From NCBI RefSeq assembly GCF_009931435.1, contig NZ_CP043414.1: a DNA stretch of 64,000 nucleotides; one strand, 5' to 3'. The stretch is from Escherichia coli. Lineage in GTDB: Bacteria > Pseudomonadota > Gammaproteobacteria > Enterobacterales > Enterobacteriaceae. Within the stretch, counting starts at the first letter, position 1, and the number at the start of each line of letters is the position of its first letter. This document shows positions 299 through 64,000 of this stretch, one piece after another. The notes under the pieces were generated by a model. It was given only the letters and a program-made list of their open reading frames with translations, had not been told where the DNA came from and searched no databases. The translations under genes were made by a program, and so were the position numbers.

Positions 299-1872
299 TA
301 AGGTTTCACCGGTTTAATCTGTTCGAACGGGATTTCGGTGGCGATCGGCGCGTAGGGGATGTTACCCAGTTCCGGTTTTGAAACCACCATCATTGAGATA
401 TAGCTGATGGGCAGATAAACCGCCTCGTCATGCAGACGGGTCAGAATGTCGCGATACAGTGCCTGACGTTGGGTTTCGTCGTGTGTCGCCAGCACTTCGC
501 CAATCTCTTTATCAATCAGTGGCTTGTCGGCTAAACCTTGCTGTGCCTGGAAGTCAGCGTGCGACGGTACGCGCATTGAACTCAGGAAGGCGTGTGGATC
601 GTATGGCGCGCCCCAGGTACGGTGGAAAATCATGCCAAAACGACCGTCGCGCTGACGAGCATAGATACTGCTCTCTTCTTCGCCGATCAGCGTGACATCC
701 GCGCCAATCTGGCGCATATCAGCCTGAATGATTTCGGCCATTGATTTGCTTAACGCATCGGTGCCGATGAACGACAGTTCAATGCGCAGCGGCTGACCAT
801 TTTTCTCGCGGATGTCTTTGCCTGCGGGCAGCGTCCAGCCTGCTTGTTCCAGCAACGCTTTCGCTTTCTGCGGATCGTACTGGCGCGGTTTCAGGCCGAG
901 ATTGGCATAGGGCACGGAAGGGGCAAACAGGGTGTCGGCGACCTGCTGGGTGCCATACAACGCGTTATCGATCAGCGATTTTTTGTTTACCGCGTAATTG
1001 AGCGCTTCACGTACGGCCAGCTCGTTGGTGGGGGCTTTGGCAGTATTGAGCGCCAGCATCACGGTTTCGATCGGCTGTGACAGTTGGGTGTGGTAAGCCG
1101 GGTTCTGGCTAAAGCGGGCGAAGGTATCGAGCGGTAATAGCCCTTCATTACCGTATAGTAGATCGATATCGCCGGTTTCAAACGCTACTGCGCGGGTAGT
1201 CGGGTCTGGGATGACGTTAAAAGTGATCTTCTTAATCGCCGGCTTTTCGCCCCAGTAGTTTTCGTTACGGACGAAGACATCGTACTGATTCAGTTTCGAT
1301 TCCTGCAAAACCCACGGCCCGGTGCCAATCGGCGCTTTAATCCCATTCATGGTTTCATGGTTTTTAAACTGCGAAGGGGCGATAAAGCGGAAAGGACGGG
1401 GCAGGGCCAGTTCTTGCAGGAAAGGGTAGTAGGCGCTTTTCAGGGTGATTTGCAGCTCGGTTTTACTGAGAGCTTTGACATCAACAATCTGGTTTGCCAG
1501 CTCCAGCCAGGCGTGACGTTGACGGTTGTCGAGCACAGCGCGGAAGTTTTCTGCCGCGGCCTCTGCATCAAACGGTTCACCGTTAGAGAATTTCACATCA
1601 TCACGCAGGGTGAAGGTCCAGGTTTTGCCATCTTCTGAATGGGTCCAGCTTTTTGCCAGCCACGGGATCACCGAACCGTCTGCCTGATATTTCACCAGTG
1701 GTTCATAAACCATGCTCTGGGCGAACATCTGGTTGGGTGTGTAAAGGTGCGGGTTTAGTGGCCCGACATTCACCGGCCAGGCGGTGGTGATTTCATCTGG
1801 TGCAGCGGCATGGACGATAAAAGACGCACAAGCCAGCAGCGCAAATAGAGTGCGGCGTAGTGTGGAGAGCAT
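298..1872 (-). CDS. nikA: periplasmic nickel-binding protein NikA
   Basis: 524-aa ORF with signal peptide; sequence matches recalled E. coli NikA; NikR operator lies upstream. Confidence 0.95.
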
Positions 1873-3805: not shown

Positions 3806-5023
3806 ATGCCCGAACCCGTAGCCGAACCCGCGCTAAACGGATTGCGCCTGAATTTGCGCATTGTCTCCATTGTCATGTTTAACTTCGCCAGCTACCTCAC
3901 CATCGGGTTGCCGCTCGCTGTATTACCGGGCTATGTCCATGATGTGATGGGCTTTAGCGCTTTCTGGGCAGGATTGGTTATCAGCCTGCAATATTTCGCC
4001 ACCTTGCTGAGCCGCCCTCATGCCGGACGTTACGCCGATTTGCTGGGACCCAAAAAGATTGTCGTCTTCGGTTTATGCGGCTGCTTTTTGAGCGGTTTGG
4101 GGTATCTGACGGCAGGGTTAACCGCCAGTCTGCCCGTCATCAGCCTGTTATTACTGTGCCTGGGGCGCGTGATCCTTGGGATTGGGCAAAGTTTTGCCGG
4201 AACGGGATCGACCCTATGGGGCGTTGGCGTGGTTGGTTCGCTGCATATCGGGCGGGTGATTTCGTGGAACGGCATTGTCACTTACGGGGCGATGGCAATG
4301 GGCGCGCCGTTAGGTGTGGTGTTTTATCACTGGGGCGGCTTGCAGGCGTTAGCGTTAATCATTATGGGTGTGGCGCTGGTGGCCATTTTGTTAGCGATCC
4401 CGCGTCCGACGGTAAAAGCCAGCAAAGGCAAACCGCTGCCGTTTCGCGCGGTGCTTGGGCGTGTCTGGTTATACGGCATGGCGCTGGCGTTGGCTTCTGC
4501 CGGATTTGGCGTTATCGCCACCTTTATCACATTGTTTTATGACGCTAAAGGCTGGGACGGTGCGGCTTTTGCGCTGACGCTGTTTAGCTGTGCGTTTGTC
4601 GGTACGCGTTTGTTATTTCCTAACGGCATTAACCGTATCGGCGGCTTAAATGTGGCGATGCTCTGCTTTAGCGTTGAGATTATTGGCCTGCTGTTGGTCG
4701 GCGTGGCGACCATGCCGTGGATGGCGAAAATTGGCGTCTTACTGGCAGGGGCGGGGTTTTCGCTGGTGTTCCCGGCGCTTGGTGTGGTGGCGGTCAAAGC
4801 AGTGCCGCAGCAGAATCAGGGGGCGGCGCTGGCAACTTACACCGTATTTATGGATTTATCGCTTGGCGTGACCGGACCACTGGCTGGGCTGGTGATGAGT
4901 TGGGCGGGCGTCCCGGTGATTTATCTGGCGGCGGCGGGACTGGTCGCAATCGCGTTATTACTGACGTGGCGATTAAAAAAACGGCCTCCGGTGGAAGTAC
5001 CTGAGGCCATCTCATCATCTTAA
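3806..5023 (+). CDS. yhhS: MFS transporter YhhS
   Basis: Track ORF begins at GTG 3764; ATG at 3806 gives MPEPVAEPALNG..., the 405-aa YhhS. Confidence 0.85.
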   Translation: MPEPVAEPALNGLRLNLRIVSIVMFNFASYLTIGLPLAVLPGYVHDVMGFSAFWAGLVISLQYFATLLSRPHAGRYADLLGPKKIVVFGLCGCFLSGLGYLTAGLTASLPVISLLLLCLGRVILGIGQSFAGTGSTLWGVGVVGSLHIGRVISWNGIVTYGAMAMGAPLGVVFYHWGGLQALALIIMGVALVAILLAIPRPTVKASKGKPLPFRAVLGRVWLYGMALALASAGFGVIATFITLFYDAKGWDGAAFALTLFSCAFVGTRLLFPNGINRIGGLNVAMLCFSVEIIGLLLVGVATMPWMAKIGVLLAGAGFSLVFPALGVVAVKAVPQQNQGAALATYTVFMDLSLGVTGPLAGLVMSWAGVPVIYLAAAGLVAIALLLTWRLKKRPPVEVPEAISSS

Positions 5024-5026
5024 AAC

Positions 5027-5584
5027 TTACTGAATAACCAGCGTATTAATGATGTTTTCTGCGGTGGTCTGTGCTTTTTGCTGATCGTCAGCTGGCAGCG
5101 TAATTTGCATGGTCAGCAGTTGATTACCCACGTTACCCAGAATAACGGAAGAGTACGCCGTCTGGCCTTTCGCGGAGATAATGCTGTCTAACTGCTGCAT
5201 TTTGTGACCTTTCAGCTCAATGGCTTTATTGGTTACCACTTGCAGCTGCGGATCGCGGCTACGTTGCTGATCTTCCAGGCGCTTCGCCAGCACCGCCAGA
5301 TCTTCTTTCGGATCATCGCCCATGATGACGATGACTGCTTTTTGCCCGGTGGCGTCGGACCAGACATGCATGTTATTAGCCTGCGTTCCCAGCTTACCGC
5401 TCTGGTCGGTCATATCCGCTGGCAGCGAGAAACTTAACTTGCCATCAAGCAGGTTGACGGGATTCCCGGTAGCGTTACTTTCCGCGACCGAACCCTGCGC
5501 CGTAGCGTTAGTGTTTTTATCATCACAGGCCGCAAGCCCCATAACCAGCAGGCCAATTCCGACATATTTAACCAGATTGCGCAT
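5027..5584 (-). CDS. dcrB: periplasmic lipoprotein DcrB
   Basis: Start [20 protein letters not shown] has a lipobox; 185 aa; matches DcrB. Confidence 0.85.
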
Positions 5585-5656
5585 TGACTTCTTCCTTTCG
5601 ATAAACGGCCATAACGGCTCATTCATCCATCTTATCACAACTCTGATAACGAACCT

Positions 5657-6322
5657 TTAACTCGCCTGCAAAGCGTTGATTTCGGATTTATCTGCCAGTC
5701 TTTTCAACAGCATATTGAGTAATACGCCATACATTGGCAGGAAGAAAACGATACTGATTAACACTTTGAAACAGTAATCGACCAGCGCGATTTCCATCCA
5801 GTGTTCAGCCATAAAGGCATCTGGGCTGCGCCAGAAGGCAATGAAGAAGAAGGCCAGCGTGTCGCTGACGTTCCCAAACAGGGTGGAAGCCGTCGGTGCC
5901 AGCCACCAGCGACGACTCTGACGCAGGCGGTTAAAAACGTGCACGTCGAGGATTTGCCCCAGCGCGTAGGCCATGAAACTGGCGGTGGCGATACGGGCGA
6001 CAAACAGGTTGAAGTGGGCGAGCGCGCCGAACCCCTGCCATGAACCCATATAGAACAGCGACGAGATGACGTAGGAGATCAGCAATGCGGGGATCATCAC
6101 CGCAAAGATGATGCGACGAGCCAGCGGCGCGCCAAAAATACGCACAGTCAGGTCGGTAGCAAGGAAAATAAACGGAAAGCTAAACGCGCCCCAGGTGGTA
6201 TGGAAACCAAAAATGGATACGGGAAGCTGAACCAGATAGTTACTGGAGGTGATCACCAACAGATGAAATAACGATAACCAGAACAACGCCTTATAGCGTT
6301 GAGTTTGCGAGAAAACGTTCAT
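5657..6322 (-). CDS. yhhQ: queuosine-precursor transporter YhhQ
   Basis: 221-aa polytopic membrane ORF matching YhhQ. Confidence 0.9.
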   Translation of the reverse strand: MNVFSQTQRYKALFWLSLFHLLVITSSNYLVQLPVSIFGFHTTWGAFSFPFIFLATDLTVRIFGAPLARRIIFAVMIPALLISYVISSLFYMGSWQGFGALAHFNLFVARIATASFMAYALGQILDVHVFNRLRQSRRWWLAPTASTLFGNVSDTLAFFFIAFWRSPDAFMAEHWMEIALVDYCFKVLISIVFFLPMYGVLLNMLLKRLADKSEINALQAS

Positions 6323-6843: not shown

Positions 6844-7079
6844 GTAGGACGGATAAGGCGTTCAAGCTGCATCTGGCGATACGGTGCACAATGCCTGATG
6901 CGACGCTGTCGCGTCTTATCATGCCTACGAGTTCTATGCTCTGTGTAGGACGGATAAGGCGTTCACGCCGCATCCGGCGGTTGTGTGTGGATGCCTGATG
7001 CGACGCTGTCGCGTCTTATCATGCCTACGAGTTCAATGCCCTGTGTAGGCCAGATAAGGCGTTTACGCCGCATCCGGCA
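6844..7079. repeat. BIME cluster of five REP units in alternating orientation
   Basis: GTAGGACGGATAAGGCGTTCA..GCATC.GGCG and its inverted partner GCCTGATGCGACGCTGTCGCGTCTTATCATGCCTAC recur with ~100-bp periodicity (units start near 6844, 6893, 6946, 6993, 7045). Confidence 0.8.
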
Positions 7080-15261: not shown

Positions 15262-15298
15262 TAAAACAGTGAATGATAACCTCGTTGCTCTTAAGCTC

Positions 15299-15313
15299 TG
15301 GCACAGTTGTTGC
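15299..15313 (+). promoter_or_regulatory. sigma-54 consensus promoter element upstream of rpoH
   Basis: TGGCAC-N5-TTGC with GG and GC exactly 12 bp apart, about 40 bp upstream of the rpoH ATG. Confidence 0.6.
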
Positions 15314-15354
15314 TACCACTGAAGCGCCAGAAGATATCGATTGAGAGGATTTGG

Positions 15355-31732: not shown

Positions 31733-31822
31733 GCGATCAGGAAGACCCTCGCGGAGAACCTGAAAGCACGACATTGCTCACATTGCTTCCAGTATTACTT
31801 AGCCAGCCGGGTGCTGGCTTTT
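31733..31822 (+). ncRNA. ryhB: iron-responsive small RNA RyhB
   Basis: 90 nt GCGATCAGGAAGACCCTCGCGGAGAACCTGAAAGCACGACATTGCTCACATTGCTTCCAGTATTACTTAGCCAGCCGGGTGCTGGCTTTT matches recalled RyhB; ends in a GCCAGC/GCTGGC hairpin plus T9; sits in the yhhY-yhhX intergenic region. Confidence 0.9.
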
Positions 31823-31945
31823 TTTTTTGACCTTTCGTTCTCAATTTATCCACGGGAAGTGCTTGTGTTTGTTATGCGCACTCCTGTAGGAACCGCGTCC
31901 GCTTTGCGCTAAGGTGTAAATAACCACCTTAAAAAGGACGAAATC

Positions 31946-52085: not shown

Positions 52086-53591
52086 TTACGACGCCAGAGA
52101 CAACCTCTGCTGCGTATACTCCCCCAGCCACTGACTCACACGAGATTGTTGATCCGCATTCAGCCACATGCCTTGTTTTGTGCGACGCCACAGGGCATCG
52201 TCGGCGCGGCGGACCCATTCGTGATCCACAAGGTATTTCAGCTCCGCTTCGTAGAACTCATGACCGAAATCTTCCCCGAGATCGCCTATCGCCCCCGCAT
52301 TGCCGAGCAGCAGTTCGCTGTTGCTGCCGTAAGTGCGCGCGTAGTGACGTGCCAGCGATTCAGTCAGGAACGGGTAACGGCGGCGCAGGCGGGCGGCATA
52401 ATCGTCGCGATCGCCTTCAATGGCACCACCCGGCAGCACGCTCTCTTTCGTCCACGCCGGGCCAATGCCCTGATAATACGGCGTCAGTTTTTCCAGCGCG
52501 TGCTCCGCCAGTTTGCGGTAGGTGGTCAGCTTACCGCCGAATACCGATAACAGCGGAGCTTTGCCGTTTTCATCATGGATATCAAGGGTGTAATCACGGG
52601 TAATGGCCTGCGGCGAATCAGATTCATCATCACACAGCGGACGCACACCGGAGTAGGTCCAGACGATATCGTCCCGGCTTAGCGGCTTTTTAAAGTGCGC
52701 GTTATACACTTTCAGCAGGTAATTGATTTCACTCTCTTCAATCTTCACCGCTTTCGGATCGCCTTTATACTCCACATCGGTGGTGCCGATAATGGAAAAC
52801 TCGTCCATCCACGGGATCACGAAGACAATACGTTTATCTTCGTTTTGCAGAATGTAGGCTTGCTTCTGGGTATGCACACGCGGCACGACAATATGGCTGC
52901 CTTTGATCAGGCGAATGCCATAAGGTGAGGGTAGATGCATCCCGTCGTCGAAGAACTGCTTCACCCACGGGCCGGTGGCGTTCACCAGACCGCGTGCCTG
53001 CCAGCTGTATTTTTTACCGGTATCAATATCTTCTGCTTCTACAATCCACAGGCCGTTTTCGCGGCGAGCAGAAGTGGCACGAGTACGGGTAAGCACTTCA
53101 CCGCCTTTACGCACCACCATCTGGGCGTTGGCGAGTACCAGACGGGCGTCGTCTACCCAACAGTCGGAATATTCGAATCCGCGCTTAATTTCCGGTTTTA
53201 ACACTGAATTTGTGCCAAAACGCAAACCGGTTGATCCCGGCAGGCTGGTGCGTTTACCCAGATGATCGTACATAAACAGACCAATACGGATCATCCACGC
53301 CGGACGCAGATGCGGGCGATGCGGCAGGCGAAAACGCATCGGGAAAGCGATATGGGGGGCCATTTTCAGCAACACTTCACGTTCAGCCAGCGCCTCGCTG
53401 ACCAGACGGAATTCATAGTGCTCAAGGTAGCGCAGGCCACCATGAATGAGTTTTGAACTGGCGGAAGAGGTCGCACAAGCGAGATCCTGCGCCTCCAGCA
53501 TCAGCACGGATAAACCGCGTCCAGCGGCGTCTGCCGCGATACCAGCACCATTGATGCCGCCACCTATCACAATCAGATCTTTGGTTTCCAT
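52086..53591 (-). CDS. glpD: aerobic glycerol-3-phosphate dehydrogenase GlpD
   Basis: ATG at 53591 (METKDLIVIGGGINGAGIA..., FAD motif); 501 aa; track ORF starts at an upstream GTG. Confidence 0.95.
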   Translation of the reverse strand: METKDLIVIGGGINGAGIAADAAGRGLSVLMLEAQDLACATSSASSKLIHGGLRYLEHYEFRLVSEALAEREVLLKMAPHIAFPMRFRLPHRPHLRPAWMIRIGLFMYDHLGKRTSLPGSTGLRFGTNSVLKPEIKRGFEYSDCWVDDARLVLANAQMVVRKGGEVLTRTRATSARRENGLWIVEAEDIDTGKKYSWQARGLVNATGPWVKQFFDDGMHLPSPYGIRLIKGSHIVVPRVHTQKQAYILQNEDKRIVFVIPWMDEFSIIGTTDVEYKGDPKAVKIEESEINYLLKVYNAHFKKPLSRDDIVWTYSGVRPLCDDESDSPQAITRDYTLDIHDENGKAPLLSVFGGKLTTYRKLAEHALEKLTPYYQGIGPAWTKESVLPGGAIEGDRDDYAARLRRRYPFLTESLARHYARTYGSNSELLLGNAGAIGDLGEDFGHEFYEAELKYLVDHEWVRRADDALWRRTKQGMWLNADQQSRVSQWLGEYTQQRLSLAS

Positions 53592-53624
53592 GCTGCCCTC
53601 ATTCACTTTCGTTAAAGCTCATAA

Positions 53625-53642
53625 ATGTTCGTTATCGAACAT
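53625..53642. promoter_or_regulatory. GlpR operator in the glpD/glpE divergent control region
   Basis: Perfect palindrome ATGTTCG-TTAT-CGAACAT, matching the GlpR operator consensus, 34 bp upstream of the glpD ATG. Confidence 0.75.
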
Positions 53643-53702
53643 ATTAGCAAAGAATCGCGCTTTGAGTAACATTGAAAAAACATTTTAGAGTGATATGTAT
53701 AA

Positions 53703-54107
<405 letters not shown>

Positions 54108-54139
54108 CGCTTTATACTGTCCCCTTTTGTGTGGAATAA

Positions 54140-54982
<843 letters not shown>

Positions 54983-54998
54983 TTCCAGGGATTTATAA

Positions 54999-55757
54999 AT
55001 GAAACAAACACAACGTCACAACGGTATTATTGAACTGGTTAAACAGCAGGGTTATGTCAGCACCGAAGAACTGGTGGAACACTTCTCTGTCAGTCCGCAG
55101 ACTATTCGTCGTGACCTCAACGAGCTGGCGGAGCAAAACCTGATCCTGCGTCACCATGGCGGCGCGGCACTGCCTTCCAGTTCGGTTAACACGCCGTGGC
55201 ACGATCGTAAGGCCACCCAGACCGAAGAAAAAGAGCGTATTGCCCGCAAAGTGGCGGAGCAAATTCCTAACGGCTCGACGCTATTTATTGATATCGGCAC
55301 CACGCCGGAAGCGGTGGCGCACGCGCTGCTTAATCACAGCAATTTGCGCATTGTGACCAACAATCTCAACGTCGCTAACACGCTGATGGTAAAAGAAGAT
55401 TTTCGCATCATTCTTGCAGGTGGCGAATTACGCAGCCGCGATGGTGGGATCATTGGCGAAGCGACGCTCGATTTTATCTCCCAGTTCCGCCTTGATTTCG
55501 GGATTCTGGGGATCAGCGGCATCGATAGCGACGGCTCGCTGCTGGAGTTCGATTACCACGAAGTTCGCACCAAACGCGCTATTATTGAGAACTCGCGCCA
55601 CGTTATGCTGGTTGTCGATCACTCGAAATTTGGCCGTAATGCGATGGTCAATATGGGCAGCATCAGCATGGTCGATGCCGTCTACACCGACGCCCCGCCA
55701 CCAGCGAGCGTGATGCAGGTGCTGACAGACCATCATATTCAGCTGGAGCTGTGCTGA
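54999..55757 (+). CDS. glpR: glycerol-3-phosphate regulon repressor GlpR (DeoR family)
   Basis: 252 aa; N-terminal HTH; 3' end overlaps rtcR 3' end. Confidence 0.95.
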   Translation: MKQTQRHNGIIELVKQQGYVSTEELVEHFSVSPQTIRRDLNELAEQNLILRHHGGAALPSSSVNTPWHDRKATQTEEKERIARKVAEQIPNGSTLFIDIGTTPEAVAHALLNHSNLRIVTNNLNVANTLMVKEDFRIILAGGELRSRDGGIIGEATLDFISQFRLDFGILGISGIDSDGSLLEFDYHEVRTKRAIIENSRHVMLVVDHSKFGRNAMVNMGSISMVDAVYTDAPPPASVMQVLTDHHIQLELC

Positions 55758-57337
55758 TCCTGCACGGCTTCCCACGTCAGACCAAAACGCGCCAGGTATT
55801 TGCGTAGCCGATCCGCGTCGTTGACGCTGGCTTTGCCCTGGCGCGAAACATCAAAGAGTTCACGCCCGGCAGCGGAAAGCGATTTTGCCTGACGGCAGAT
55901 AGCGATAACGTGTTCCAGTTGCAGCCGATCAAAGAGGTCGATGTTTTCCGCTTCAGCGCCCAGTAGCTGCTTAAGCGCAGAAGAGCGGCTATCCTGCCAG
56001 TTGTAGCGTAGACGGTTTATCTCATCTTCTACGGTTTCAAGGGTGATACGCCCACTATCGGCAAACGTCGCCATGCGTGTGACGCTGGCAGAAAGCTCGC
56101 GAAAGTTACCGCGCCATGTTGCCTGGGGAGATGTCGCAAAGGCCAGCCAGGCGCGCCTCGCTTCGGTGTTAAAACGCACGCTGTCGCCGGTGAGTGAGGC
56201 GTGGCGCTCCACTTCATAATCCAGGTTCGGTTCAATATCTTCCTGGCGCTGGCGTAGACCCGGCAGGGTGAAGGTCCAGAGATTGATCCGCGCGTACAGG
56301 TCTTCGCGAAATTTGCCTTCGGCAACCAGCTGACGCAAATCGCGCACCGTTCCGGCGATCAGCTGAAAATCACTGCTCACCTGGCGATCGCTACCAAACG
56401 GGTGAAAGGTTTTCTCTTCAATGGCTTTTAGCAACATTGCCTGTTCGTCTGCGCCCAGTTCGCCAATCTCATCAAGAAACAACATGCCGCCGTTGGCGCT
56501 GCGTAATAACCCTTCACGAGATTCCCGCGCCCCGGTAAACGCGCCTTTCACATGACCAAACAGCGCGGACATGGCGGTATCGCCACGCAGAGTGGCGCAG
56601 TTCACTTCCACAAACTCGCCGCAAAACTGATGCCGCGCCTGTTTTAACTCGAAGATGCGTCGTGCCAGAAATGACTTACCCGCACCGGTCGGGCCGTTAA
56701 GCAGGATCGGTGCGCGGGATTTGATCGCCACTTTTTCGATCTGCTCAATCATGCGGTTGAAGTGGGCGTTACGCGTGGCAATGCCGGATTTGAGGAAATC
56801 GAGAGTTTGCTGGCGTTCTTCGGCAAAGCGGCTGGCAATAGCGTTATAACGGCTTAAATCGAGATCGATAATCGTCACCGCACCAGGGCTGTTGGGCTGT
56901 TCTTTTTTACGCGGTGGCGAAGATTGTATTAACCTGGCGGGCAGGTAACGCGCTTCTGCCAGTAGAAACCAGCAAATTTGCGCGACGTGGGTACCGGTGG
57001 TGATGTGAATTAAATAGTCTTCTTTATCAGGTTCGAACGCGTAACCACGGGCGAAATCATGCAGGCAGGCGTAAACCTCCTCGAAATCCCACGGGTTATG
57101 CAGTTCAATCTCAACGCTCACCACTTCTGTTTCTGGCGAAACATTGGCGATATCGCGTTTAAGCGTTTCAAACAGCGAGCGCGAGCGGGCGTCGTGCAAC
57201 AATTCCAGTCGATTGATGACTAACGATTCTTGCTGGCATAGACAGAGTGACGGACGCCATTTCGACCATCGCTGACTGCCGCGCCCGGCATAATCCAGTA
57301 CGGTGCCGACAAAGCCAAAAGCCACTGTTTTACGCAT
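55739..57337 (-). CDS. rtcR: sigma-54-dependent transcriptional activator RtcR
   Basis: 532 aa; AAA+ sigma-54 interaction domain (GPTGAGKS, GAFTGA); divergent from rtcBA. Confidence 0.95.
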   Translation of the reverse strand: MRKTVAFGFVGTVLDYAGRGSQRWSKWRPSLCLCQQESLVINRLELLHDARSRSLFETLKRDIANVSPETEVVSVEIELHNPWDFEEVYACLHDFARGYAFEPDKEDYLIHITTGTHVAQICWFLLAEARYLPARLIQSSPPRKKEQPNSPGAVTIIDLDLSRYNAIASRFAEERQQTLDFLKSGIATRNAHFNRMIEQIEKVAIKSRAPILLNGPTGAGKSFLARRIFELKQARHQFCGEFVEVNCATLRGDTAMSALFGHVKGAFTGARESREGLLRSANGGMLFLDEIGELGADEQAMLLKAIEEKTFHPFGSDRQVSSDFQLIAGTVRDLRQLVAEGKFREDLYARINLWTFTLPGLRQRQEDIEPNLDYEVERHASLTGDSVRFNTEARRAWLAFATSPQATWRGNFRELSASVTRMATFADSGRITLETVEDEINRLRYNWQDSRSSALKQLLGAEAENIDLFDRLQLEHVIAICRQAKSLSAAGRELFDVSRQGKASVNDADRLRKYLARFGLTWEAVQDQHSSS

Positions 57338-57471
57338 CTTAGATATCCTTATAAAAGACGATATTTCATTATCGGCGAATTGGCTTTGCGGGAAATCTCC
57401 GTTTACGGACGTACAGATTTTATCTATTTAAAAACAATGAATTAAAAAATTAATCTGCTTATTTAATTTTC

Positions 57472-57487
57472 TGGCACGGCGGATGCA
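57472..57487 (+). promoter_or_regulatory. sigma-54 promoter of rtcBA
   Basis: TGGCAC-GGCGGA-TGCA: GG (57473-57474) and GC (57485-57486) are 12 bp apart, about 40 bp upstream of the rtcB ATG, opposite the sigma-54 activator gene rtcR. Confidence 0.8.
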
Positions 57488-57525
57488 ATTATCTGGACAG
57501 CAAACAACGAAAAGAGAAAAACAAA

Positions 57526-58752
57526 ATGAATTACGAATTACTGACCACTGAAAATGTCCCGGTAAAAATGTGGACCAAAGGCGTACCGGTAGAAGACGAT
57601 GCGCGTCAGCAACTTATTAATACGGCGAAGATGACGTTTATTTTCAAACATATTGCGGTAATGCCTGATGTACATCTGGGTAAAGGTTCCACCATTGGTA
57701 GCGTTATCCCGACCAAAGGGGCGATTATTCCGGCGGCGGTGGGGGTAGATATCGGTTGTGGAATGAACGCACTGCGAACTGCGTTAACGGCGGCAGATCT
57801 GCCTGAAAACCTGGCGGAGCTGCGTCAGGCGATTGAAACTGCCGTGCCGCACGGACGTTCCAATAATCGTAGCCGTCGTGATAAAGGCGCATGGGAGAAT
57901 CCGCCTGTTAACGTCGATGCGAAATGGGCTGAGCTTGAAGCCGGTTATCAGTGGTTAACGCAAAAATATCCGCGTTTCCTTAATACCAATAACTATAAAC
58001 ACCTGGGAACGCTGGGAACGGGAAACCACTTTATTGAAATCTGCCTTGATGAGTCGGATCAGGTGTGGATTATGCTGCACTCCGGTTCACGCGGAATTGG
58101 TAATGCCATCGGGACTTACTTTATCGATCTGGCACAAAAAGAGATGCAGGAAACGCTTGAAACGTTGCCATCGCGTGACCTGGCGTACTTTATGGAAGGT
58201 ACGGAATACTTTGATGATTACCTGAAAGCGGTGGCCTGGGCGCAGCTTTTTGCCAGCCTTAACCGCGATGCGATGATGGAAAATGTGGTAACGGCGTTGC
58301 AGAGCGTTACGCAGAAAACGGTAAGACAGCCACAAACGCTGGCGATGGAAGAGATCAACTGTCACCACAACTATGTGCAAAAAGAACAGCACTTTGGCGA
58401 AGAGATCTATGTGACGCGTAAAGGCGCGGTGTCTGCGCGTGCTGGTCAATATGGAATTATTCCCGGTTCGATGGGGGCGAAAAGCTTTATTGTCCGTGGG
58501 CTGGGAAATGAAGAGTCGTTCTGTTCGTGCAGCCACGGTGCCGGGCGGGTAATGAGCCGTACTAAAGCGAAAAAACTGTTCAGCGTGGAAGATCAAATTC
58601 GTGCCACCGCGCATGTGGAATGCCGTAAAGATGCCGAAGTGATCGACGAAATCCCGATGGCGTATAAAGATATCGACGCGGTGATGGCGGCACAAAGCGA
58701 TCTGGTGGAAGTTATCTACACCCTGCGTCAGGTGGTGTGTGTAAAAGGATAA
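57526..58752 (+). CDS. rtcB: RNA-splicing ligase RtcB
   Basis: 408-aa ORF matching RtcB. Confidence 0.95.
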   Translation: MNYELLTTENVPVKMWTKGVPVEDDARQQLINTAKMTFIFKHIAVMPDVHLGKGSTIGSVIPTKGAIIPAAVGVDIGCGMNALRTALTAADLPENLAELRQAIETAVPHGRSNNRSRRDKGAWENPPVNVDAKWAELEAGYQWLTQKYPRFLNTNNYKHLGTLGTGNHFIEICLDESDQVWIMLHSGSRGIGNAIGTYFIDLAQKEMQETLETLPSRDLAYFMEGTEYFDDYLKAVAWAQLFASLNRDAMMENVVTALQSVTQKTVRQPQTLAMEEINCHHNYVQKEQHFGEEIYVTRKGAVSARAGQYGIIPGSMGAKSFIVRGLGNEESFCSCSHGAGRVMSRTKAKKLFSVEDQIRATAHVECRKDAEVIDEIPMAYKDIDAVMAAQSDLVEVIYTLRQVVCVKG

Positions 58753-59772
<1,020 letters not shown>

Positions 59773-59784
59773 TATAAAGATGTA

Positions 59785-59810
59785 AGCCGGATCCGACGTA
59801 TTATCCGGCT
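59785..59810. terminator. hairpin between convergent rtcA and malT
   Basis: AGCCGGAT-10 nt loop-ATCCGGCT, 8-bp stem, in the 42-bp gap. Confidence 0.6.
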
Positions 59811-59814
59811 AAAC

Positions 59815-62526
<2,712 letters not shown>

Positions 62527-62642
62527 TCACTTCACTGTGGAAAATGAGGAAATATTATTTTTTTTGCGCTTCGTAATTAATGGTTATAAGGTCGGCCAGA
62601 AACCCTTCTAATGCAAGCGATGACGTTTTTTTATGTGTCTGA

Positions 62643-62662
62643 ATTTGCACTGTGTCACAATT
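62643..62662 (-). promoter_or_regulatory. possible CRP site upstream of malT
   Basis: ATTTGCACTGTGTCACAATT contains a good TCACA half-site and a degenerate partner, about 125 bp upstream of the malT ATG. Confidence 0.4.
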
Positions 62663-63030
62663 CCAAATGTTTATTAACAACTCACCTAATAACGACGCTG
62701 ATGCAGCGTGAATACTGGGTTTTACGGTATTTTCCTCATGTTCATCAGTTTCATTTAAGCAAGGGAGTCTTCTCAATTCCTGATGAAAGAGCCATCTAAA
62801 AAGAGGATCTTAATAAACCTATTAAGAATGAGATGGAGCAAACTGAATGTTTTACTTATGAAACTGTTTCACTCCTTTACTTAATTTATAGAGTTACCTT
62901 CCGCCTTTTGAAAATACACAACGGCCATTTTTTGCACTTAGATACAGATTTTCTGCGCTGTATGGCATTGATTTGCTGCTAATCCTGTGGATTGCACTAG
63001 GTTTAAGTGGTCGAGATCACATTTCCTTGC

Positions 63031-63072
63031 TCATCCCCGCAACTCCTCCCTGCCTAATCCCCCGCAGGATGA
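63031..63072 (+). promoter_or_regulatory. MalT boxes of the malPQ promoter
   Basis: Three GGA(T/G)GA hexamers: TCATCC (63031-63036, inverted), TCCTCC (63044-63049, inverted) and GGATGA (63067-63072), 70-115 bp upstream of malP. Confidence 0.7.
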
Positions 63073-63119
63073 GGAAGGTCAACATCGAGCCTGGCAAACT
63101 AGCGATAACGTTGTGTTGA

Positions 63120-64000
<881 letters not shown>

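Follow-up and report, generated by a model that had tools for sequence, protein, structure and literature searches.

The 188-bp gap between rtcR and rtcB (57338-57525) is most probably the standard divergent control region of the Rtc RNA-repair system, which is an already known system; we put the probability of this reading at roughly 0.9. The gap lies in a window of 64,000 nucleotides, which is the whole stretch of DNA that was analysed. A textbook sigma-54 control region is present and intact in a divergent Escherichia lineage, and the significance of this result is limited. The value added by the analysis is a comparative map of the region, consisting of the start site, the IHF core and the candidate enhancer, together with a rare variant at position -15 of the promoter. 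The features are summarized in Table 1.

Table 1. Features of the rtcR-rtcB gap and of the genes on either side of it
Feature	Position	Strand	Description
rtcR	55739-57337	-	sigma-54 enhancer-binding activator, 532 aa; RtcR/CARF-type N-terminal domain, AAA+ domain, HTH
rtcR Shine-Dalgarno	57346-57350	-	AAGGA on the minus strand, 8 nt before ATG; read directly
Dyad CGATA-N6-TATCG	57359-57374		candidate RtcR upstream activator sequence; centre at about -131 from the rtcB start
Palindrome TCCGTTTACGGA	57398-57409		-100 to -89; between candidate enhancer and IHF core
IHF-like core AAACAATGAATTA	57432-57444	+	one mismatch to WATCAANNNNTTR; centre at about -60; between candidate enhancer and promoter
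Sigma-54 promoter TGGCACGGCGGATGCA	57472-57487	+	GG at -25/-24, GC at -13/-12
Predicted rtcBA transcription start	57498	+	C, preceded by A57497; 28 nt before the rtcB ATG
rtcB leader	57498-57525	+	28 nt; purine-rich stretch AAAAGAGAAAAA, weak ribosome-binding site; read from sequence
rtcB	57526-58752	+	RNA 3'-phosphate/2',3'-cyclic phosphate ligase, 408 aa; RtcB-family matches
rtcA	58756-59772	+	RNA 3'-terminal phosphate cyclase, 338 aa

Layout of the locus and the sigma-54 promoter

The gap is bounded by the complement of the rtcR start codon (57335-57337) and by the rtcB ATG at 57526, and its G+C content is 31%. The G+C content in 100-nt windows is 31-35% in the gap versus 50-58% in the flanking coding sequence, which bears out the AT-richness claimed for the gap by an earlier sequence-only reading. 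RtcR matches the NCBIfam model NF038308 (RNA_repair_RtcR) over residues 1-527 with a score of 846.7 bits, against a cut-off of 650, and its Walker A (GPTGAGKS), GAFTGA and Walker B (LFLDEIGEL) motifs are intact. It differs from RtcR of K-12 at 24 of the 532 residues. The TCC core (57346-57348) of the rtcR Shine-Dalgarno sequence is kept in nine of the ten aligned enteric sequences, while its last two bases are variable. RtcB is equal in length to RtcB of K-12 and differs from it at 10 amino acids; the NCBIfam RtcB models listed represent other subfamilies, and RtcB scores below their cut-offs. RtcA matches NF003247 with 774.6 bits (cut-off 333), aligned from residue 2 of the longer open reading frame, and differs from its K-12 counterpart at 8 positions. 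Two in-frame ATG codons (58753 and 58756) directly follow the rtcB stop codon, and the second one at 58756 is favoured as the rtcA start, as the family model and the K-12 annotation agree on it. The reading frames of rtcR, rtcB and rtcA are all intact and of full length. The gene order glpG-glpR-rtcR / rtcB-rtcA / malT is that of K-12, in which the gap is likewise 188 bp long. The coordinates and the gene identities, as judged from the profile scores and the synteny with K-12, agree with the earlier assignment of this gap to rtcR and rtcBA, and the description of the system as a known one holds as well, with the same genes, synteny and gap length in K-12 and an orthologous promoter that is experimentally documented.

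The sigma-54 promoter consists of TGGCAC (57472-57477) and TGCA (57484-57487). When the spacing is recounted, exactly 10 nt (57475-57484) separate the GG doublet (57473-57474) from the GC doublet (57485-57486). The box matches the extended consensus TGGCAC-N5-TTGCW at 10 of the 11 specified bases. The proposal that a -24/-12 element lies upstream of rtcB and opposite rtcR is confirmed, except that the -12 element is not the standard TTGCA but a rare, derived ATGCA. The consensus TGGCACN5TTGCW is found with one mismatch or less five times in the window, as compared with 3.45 ± 1.86 times in shuffled sequences. This count is not above chance, and the argument for the box therefore rests on its placement and conservation.

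When the window is scored with a weight matrix made from 28 Salmonella intergenic sigma-54 ChIP sites (PMC3844500, Table 3; the rsr site omitted), position 57472 receives the highest score among about 128,000 positions. This score, 15.75 bits, is lower than those of all 28 training sites (16.1-23.1 bits), because the box carries A at -15 and G at -19. A GG-N10-GC box is present on the opposite strand, 133-167 bp from the rtcR start, at 15 of 16 rtcR loci of species-representative genomes ranging from Escherichia to Desulfobulbus, and at five of six further rtcR loci, the exception being an rtcR gene of Chitinimonas without an adjacent rtcB. Thus, a sigma-54 box is so placed at 20 of 22 rtcR loci of gamma-, beta- and deltaproteobacteria. 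The top matrix score and the fixed distance from rtcR at these loci indicate that the box at 57472 is a real sigma-54 element, as far as can be judged from sequence comparison; its occupancy is known for the K-12 and Salmonella orthologues. The second-best matrix match in the window, CTGGCACAGTTGTTGCT at 15298-15314 on the plus strand, has the same sequence as the K-12 ChIP-seq site OS36, the known sigma-54 promoter of rpoH; the ATG of rpoH (15356) follows after 41 nt.

The K-12 orthologue of the box, CTGGCACGACGGTTGCA, is the sigma-54 ChIP-seq site OS35 with a FAT (fold above threshold) value of 17 (PMC4591121, Table 1), and the K-12 rtcB promoter is marked as experimentally confirmed in EcoCyc (PMC4591121). 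The comparison with published promoter data that was recommended along with the earlier assignment thus gives agreement, including a distance of 28 bp to the ATG in both cases (PMC4591121). The Salmonella orthologue, TGGCACGCTGGTTGCAAT, is ChIP-positive and is induced 71-fold by a constitutive activator (PMC3844500). Both orthologues depend on sigma-54 and RtcR (PMC3844500, PMC5175333), and in vitro even the K-12 promoter is described as very weak (PMC9650030).

C57498 is the probable start of the rtcBA transcript according to three independent lines of evidence. C57498 is located 12 nt past the C of the -12 GC doublet. It is also the position obtained when 19 is added to the motif centre at 57479 according to the rule of PMC4591121, and it leaves 28 bp to the ATG, as in K-12. 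Finally, A57497-C57498 is ApC, the dinucleotide that primes transcription of native PrtcBA at -1/+1 (PMC9650030). The rtcB leader that would begin here is nearly identical in all of the Escherichia sequences aligned. A standard scan of 57200-57700 detects neither sigma-70 promoters nor terminators, and a looser scan gives only weak and tentative promoter candidates for rtcR, with scores of 8 of 12. Rfam gives no RNA family in or near the gap. Four short open reading frames (21-42 aa) that overlap the gap are dismissed; they are unsupported and overlap the rtcR start or the promoter.

Candidate RtcR enhancer and IHF-like core

An alignment of ten enteric sequences, seven from Escherichia and one each from Klebsiella, Intestinirhabdus and Superficieibacter, contains two conserved islands, which are separated by about 95 bp that are barely alignable across genera. 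One island is the sigma-54 box, and the other is a block adjoining rtcR that extends from TATAAA to the dyad CGATA-N6-TATCG. The half-sites of the dyad are invariant in all ten sequences, and GATA-N6-TATC is found at the same distance, with a different N6, at two further loci (Salmonella-like and Enterobacter). The N6 spacer varies among TTTCAT, TTTAAT, AATAAT, ATTTAT and GTAAAT, the last being that of the Salmonella-like locus. Invariant half-sites around a variable spacer are the signature of a site that binds a dimer.

The tetramers GATA and TATC are also enriched at more distant loci. In the 70 nt adjoining rtcR at 12 loci from several classes, they are found 36 times, as compared with 9.8 ± 3.1 times expected, whereas they are not enriched in the remaining upstream region (6 versus 9.8). 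They tend to be about 10 bp apart, as at -142/-132/-122/-112 in one Pseudomonas, at -134/-124 in Ralstonia and at -133/-123/-103 in Caballeronia. The Shine-Dalgarno core is part of GGATA on the rtcR strand, and the ribosome-binding site of rtcR may therefore account for some of the enrichment nearest to this gene. The dyad pattern is found once in the window and is by itself not rarer than expected by chance, and is therefore of no use in a search for further RtcR targets in the window.

A 175-nt fragment corresponding to 57351-57525 gives RtcR-dependent reporter activity (PMC5175333), and the dyad is located within this functional fragment. The plasmid that carries this fragment titrates RtcR in vivo when present in multicopy (PMC9650030). 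The RtcR enhancer is entered as 'NK' in a 2016 review (PMC4987338), and 'unknown binding sites' are ascribed to RtcR in another report of 2016 (PMC4888284). A literature search for RtcR binding sites gave nothing specific, and the sequences of the enhancer and of the IHF site are not given as text in the supplements of PMC9650030 and PMC4888284. The dyad is the best candidate for the RtcR enhancer and is not a mapped site.

An alternative, although an unlikely one, is that the dyad is the sigma-70 promoter of rtcR or the operator of another regulator, and that RtcR binds elsewhere, for example at TCCGTTTACGGA. The conservation of the dyad could partly reflect an rtcR promoter, because the dyad overlaps a weak -10-like GATAAT (57373-57368): its right half-site reads CGATAAT on the minus strand, a weak -35 sequence (TTTCCC) is located 16 nt upstream, and the rtcR ATG is only 22 bp away. 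The palindrome at 57398-57409 provides a second possible site. However, this palindrome is present in all seven Escherichia sequences (with one change in K-12) and absent from Klebsiella, Intestinirhabdus and Superficieibacter, and the -35 candidate is likewise conserved in Escherichia only. The invariant half-sites with a varying 6-nt spacer follow the pattern of a dimer site, and GATA/TATC tetramers about 10 bp apart are located beside rtcR not only in Pseudomonas, Ralstonia and Caballeronia but also in Iodobacter, Accumulibacter and Desulfovibrio. In addition, a position of about -131 is typical of the enhancers of this class of activator. These points favour the dyad as the candidate enhancer.

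The dyad extends from 22 to 37 bp from the rtcR start codon, and its centre is about 30 bp from the ATG. RtcR bound to an enhancer so near to the rtcR start should interfere with the transcription of rtcR. To judge from this arrangement, RtcR probably limits its own gene, as PspF does at pspF. The standard scan gives no sigma-70 promoter for rtcR, so that the geometry of this autoregulation is unproven. A wider proposal, to which somewhat less than an even chance is given, is that the RtcR enhancer consists of GATA/TATC half-sites one helical turn apart, arranged as CGATA-N6-TATCG in enterobacteria and as TATC-N6-GATA in beta-proteobacteria and pseudomonads, that it is placed over the rtcR leader or promoter such that RtcR would throttle its own synthesis, and that the region carries in addition a unique down-mutation at -15.

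Within the gap, the IHF core WATCAANNNNTTR is matched well only by AAACAATGAATTA and by a weaker sequence that overlaps it. AAACAATGAATTA is located 34 nt upstream of the T of TGGCAC. Perfect IHF cores are located on the same strand 34-36 nt upstream of this T in Iodobacter, in Accumulibacter and at three Pseudomonas loci; in Superficieibacter and at a Salmonella-like locus, the distance is 24-25 nt. A match to the core is present at 12 of 15 loci, as compared with 3.7 ± 1.6 in shuffled sequences. An 'rtc IHF binding site' in the promoter is mentioned without its sequence in PMC9650030. These results show that the IHF-like core is conserved in position, and occupancy by IHF is predicted. The earlier guess that the gap contains IHF and upstream activator sites is therefore borne out to the extent that motif scanning and comparison give a good candidate for each (57432-57444 and 57359-57374). 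The comparative map of the candidate enhancer and the IHF core can be tested with a single footprint and would be useful in the design of Rtc reporters and models.

The dyad, together with the Shine-Dalgarno sequence and the initial codons of rtcR, is enclosed by a perfect inverted repeat of 9 nt, CAAAGCCAA at 57310-57318 and TTGGCTTTG at 57380-57388. In Escherichia sp. MOD1-EC7003, both arms are changed in a compensating manner (CAAAACCAA / TTGGTTTTG); in E. whittamii, the pairing is broken. The putative rtcR leader folds with a z value of -2.3. The inverted repeat could be a leader structure, provided that transcription of rtcR starts upstream of 57388. A direct repeat, AAAAACAATGAATTA / AAACAAAATGAATTA, is a two-copy AT-rich match that probably arises by chance.

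The -15/-19 allele and the lineage of the window

The sigma-54 box carries A instead of T at 57483 (-15) and G instead of A at 57479 (-19). A at -15 is unique among the sigma-54 boxes found at 23 rtcR loci, and T is present at this position in all 21 other boxes. A perfect TGGCAC-N5-TTGCA is present in enteric relatives, K-12 and Iodobacter. None of 5,426 complete E. coli genomes contains a 28-mer that covers both changes, and the best match of a 40-mer among these genomes has two mismatches. The variant with A at -15 on the K-12 background is also absent from the 5,426 genomes, while a positive control, the consensus form with T, is found in 4,488 of them. The possibility that both changes are common alleles is thus rejected for E. 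coli by these genome searches, in which the lineage of the window itself is barely sampled.

According to the weight matrix, the changes at -15 and -19 cost 2.35 and 1.4 bits respectively, and the box scores 3.8 bits below the K-12 allele in total. Within TTGC, position -15 tolerates the most variation, with T at 18, C at 5, A at 3 and G at 2 of the 28 sites. G at -19 is also found in two other genera, at the Salmonella-like and Intestinirhabdus loci. GATGCA, with A at -15, is shared by the zraP and fdhF promoters of E. coli, to which sigma-54 binds well, with FAT values of 39 and 41 (PMC4591121). From these comparisons, the allele probably lowers the affinity for sigma-54 modestly without abolishing it, such that the promoter would be weakened but functional. 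The -15 variant is potentially a natural, ready-made weak allele of the rtcBA promoter.

At ggt/yhhX and at malT, the window shares only 90-95% identity with about 5,300 E. coli genomes, and the nearest genome is 98.7% identical. This level of identity to most E. coli genomes indicates that the window comes from a divergent Escherichia lineage. This lineage is poorly sampled, and private changes are therefore expected. When 52800-64000 is compared with E. coli 2013C-4282, malT (59815-62520) is 100% identical to that of this strain and to that of WL297, while the rtcR-rtcB-rtcA segment differs from that of 2013C-4282 by 1-2%, with the differences clustered. This mosaic similarity suggests a recombination boundary near 59.8 kb. 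The only Rfam families at gathering score in the window are the RyhB sRNA (31762-31826, plus strand, 83 bits) and naRNA4 (6948-7025, plus strand, 67.5 bits).

It is rather improbable, yet to be considered, that the control region is decaying in this lineage, and that the change at -15, together with that at -19, is a down-mutation that leaves rtcBA poorly inducible or silent. The uniqueness of A at -15 among the boxes found, its absence from the 5,426 E. coli genomes and a box score under the range of the 28 training ChIP sites would be accounted for in this way. The rtc locus is moreover dispensable and frequently lost or damaged in Escherichia: 570 of the 5,426 E. coli genomes have no match to the control region, rtcB is frameshifted in E. 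coli 2013C-4282 (4713-5938 of that locus), and many RtcR proteins of E. coli, Shigella and Salmonella are truncated (426-507 aa; 441-507 aa for E. coli and Shigella). RtcR in the window carries Y312H, at a position that is otherwise aromatic or hydrophobic (the residue is Y, F or L in each of the 19 other sequences of RtcR), and RtcB carries P37T. However, all three rtc frames are intact and the AAA+ catalytic motifs are unchanged. The affected base at -15 is the loosest one of TTGC (A in 3 of 28 sites), the zraP and fdhF promoters bind sigma-54 well with the same GATGCA (PMC4591121), and G at -19 recurs at the Salmonella-like and Intestinirhabdus loci. Private changes are, in addition, expected in a lineage of which the nearest genome is 98.7% identical. 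The allele is thus better regarded as a probably weakened but functional promoter.

Several further variants are observed at the locus. In one species-representative E. coli genome, rtcR is reduced to its last 33 codons. The RtcR substitutions S239C, A241E and Y312H are not found in K-12, RMDEC465 or 2013C-4282, and P37T of RtcB is not found in K-12 or RMDEC465, the two strains used for this comparison because rtcB of 2013C-4282 is frameshifted.

That the -24/-12 match arose by chance or is a sigma-54 site without a product, with rtcBA under the control of another promoter, is hardly credible, for although the motif is not enriched over shuffled sequences in the window and inert sigma-54 sites are numerous in E. 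coli (PMC4591121), the position, strand and spacing of the box are kept across three proteobacterial classes, the gene for the cognate activator adjoins it, its orthologues in K-12 and Salmonella require sigma-54 and RtcR (PMC3844500, PMC5175333), and the standard scan finds no sigma-70 promoter in the gap.

Proposed mechanism and comparison with known systems

The map is consistent with the following mechanism. Sigma-54 RNA polymerase would form a closed complex on the -24/-12 box (57472-57487), and RtcR would bind to an enhancer about 130 bp upstream, for which the dyad at 57359-57374 is the best candidate. IHF would bend the AT-rich DNA at about -60 (57432-57444), such that the RtcR and polymerase complexes could meet. 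A signal, which according to published work is a tRNA fragment with a 2',3'-cyclic phosphate end and in which RtcA and RtcB take part, would release the CARF-type N-terminal domain, upon which RtcR would oligomerise and hydrolyse ATP. Transcription of rtcBA would then begin at C57498. The occupancy of the upstream sites by RtcR and by IHF, and the consequences of replacing T by A at -15, enter this scheme as predictions.

The inducing signal was earlier described as poorly understood. This statement was true until about 2016 (PMC4987338) and is partly outdated since the appearance of PMC7790460 and PMC9650030. The 5' tRNA fragments ending in 2',3'-cyclic phosphate bind to the CARF domain of RtcR and lead to its oligomerisation (PMC7790460), and RtcA and RtcB bind to the CARF domain and are required for activation (PMC9650030). 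At the loci of Accumulibacter (1781-1853, minus strand) and Pseudomonas sp. GD03944 (2565-2710, minus strand), tRNA or tRNA-like genes are located just downstream of the sigma-54 promoter in the direction of the operon. They comprise a tRNA-Met-like gene, a tRNA-Ser(AGA)-like gene and a further one in which the anticodon loop is aberrant, and the Rfam tRNA scores are 51 and 60 bits. The location of tRNA genes beside this promoter is worthy of note, because RtcR senses tRNA fragments.

The closest known system is rtcR/rtcBA of K-12, which has the same flanking genes, synteny and 188-bp gap. The dyad, IHF-like core and leader are identical in the two, and the start is 28 nt before the ATG in both. 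The two gaps differ by about 13 substitutions, and the core box is TGGCACGACGGTTGCA in K-12 but TGGCACGGCGGATGCA here. The K-12 promoter rtcBp was reportedly mapped originally by Genschik et al. in 1998. The rsr-yrlBA-rtcBA operon of Salmonella Typhimurium, transcribed from rsrp, is likewise divergent from rtcR, and its sigma-54 box, TGGCACGCTGGTTGCAAT, is of this type as well; rsrp is RtcR-dependent and is induced by tRNA fragments (PMC3844500, PMC7790460). The Salmonella operon, however, starts with rsr and two Y RNAs, whereas rtcB directly follows the promoter in the window, where a search with Rfam finds no Y RNA.

The pspF/pspABCDE system, in which the activator gene is divergent from its sigma-54 target, IHF is located between the enhancer and the promoter, and the bound activator can repress its own gene, works alike, although the self-repression by RtcR in the rtc system is a prediction. 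PspF, which lacks a regulatory domain, is under the control of PspA, while RtcR has a CARF-type sensor. GATGCA with A at -15 is also the -12 element of the zraP and fdhF promoters (PMC4591121), which belong to other regulons and respond to other activators, ZraR and FhlA respectively.
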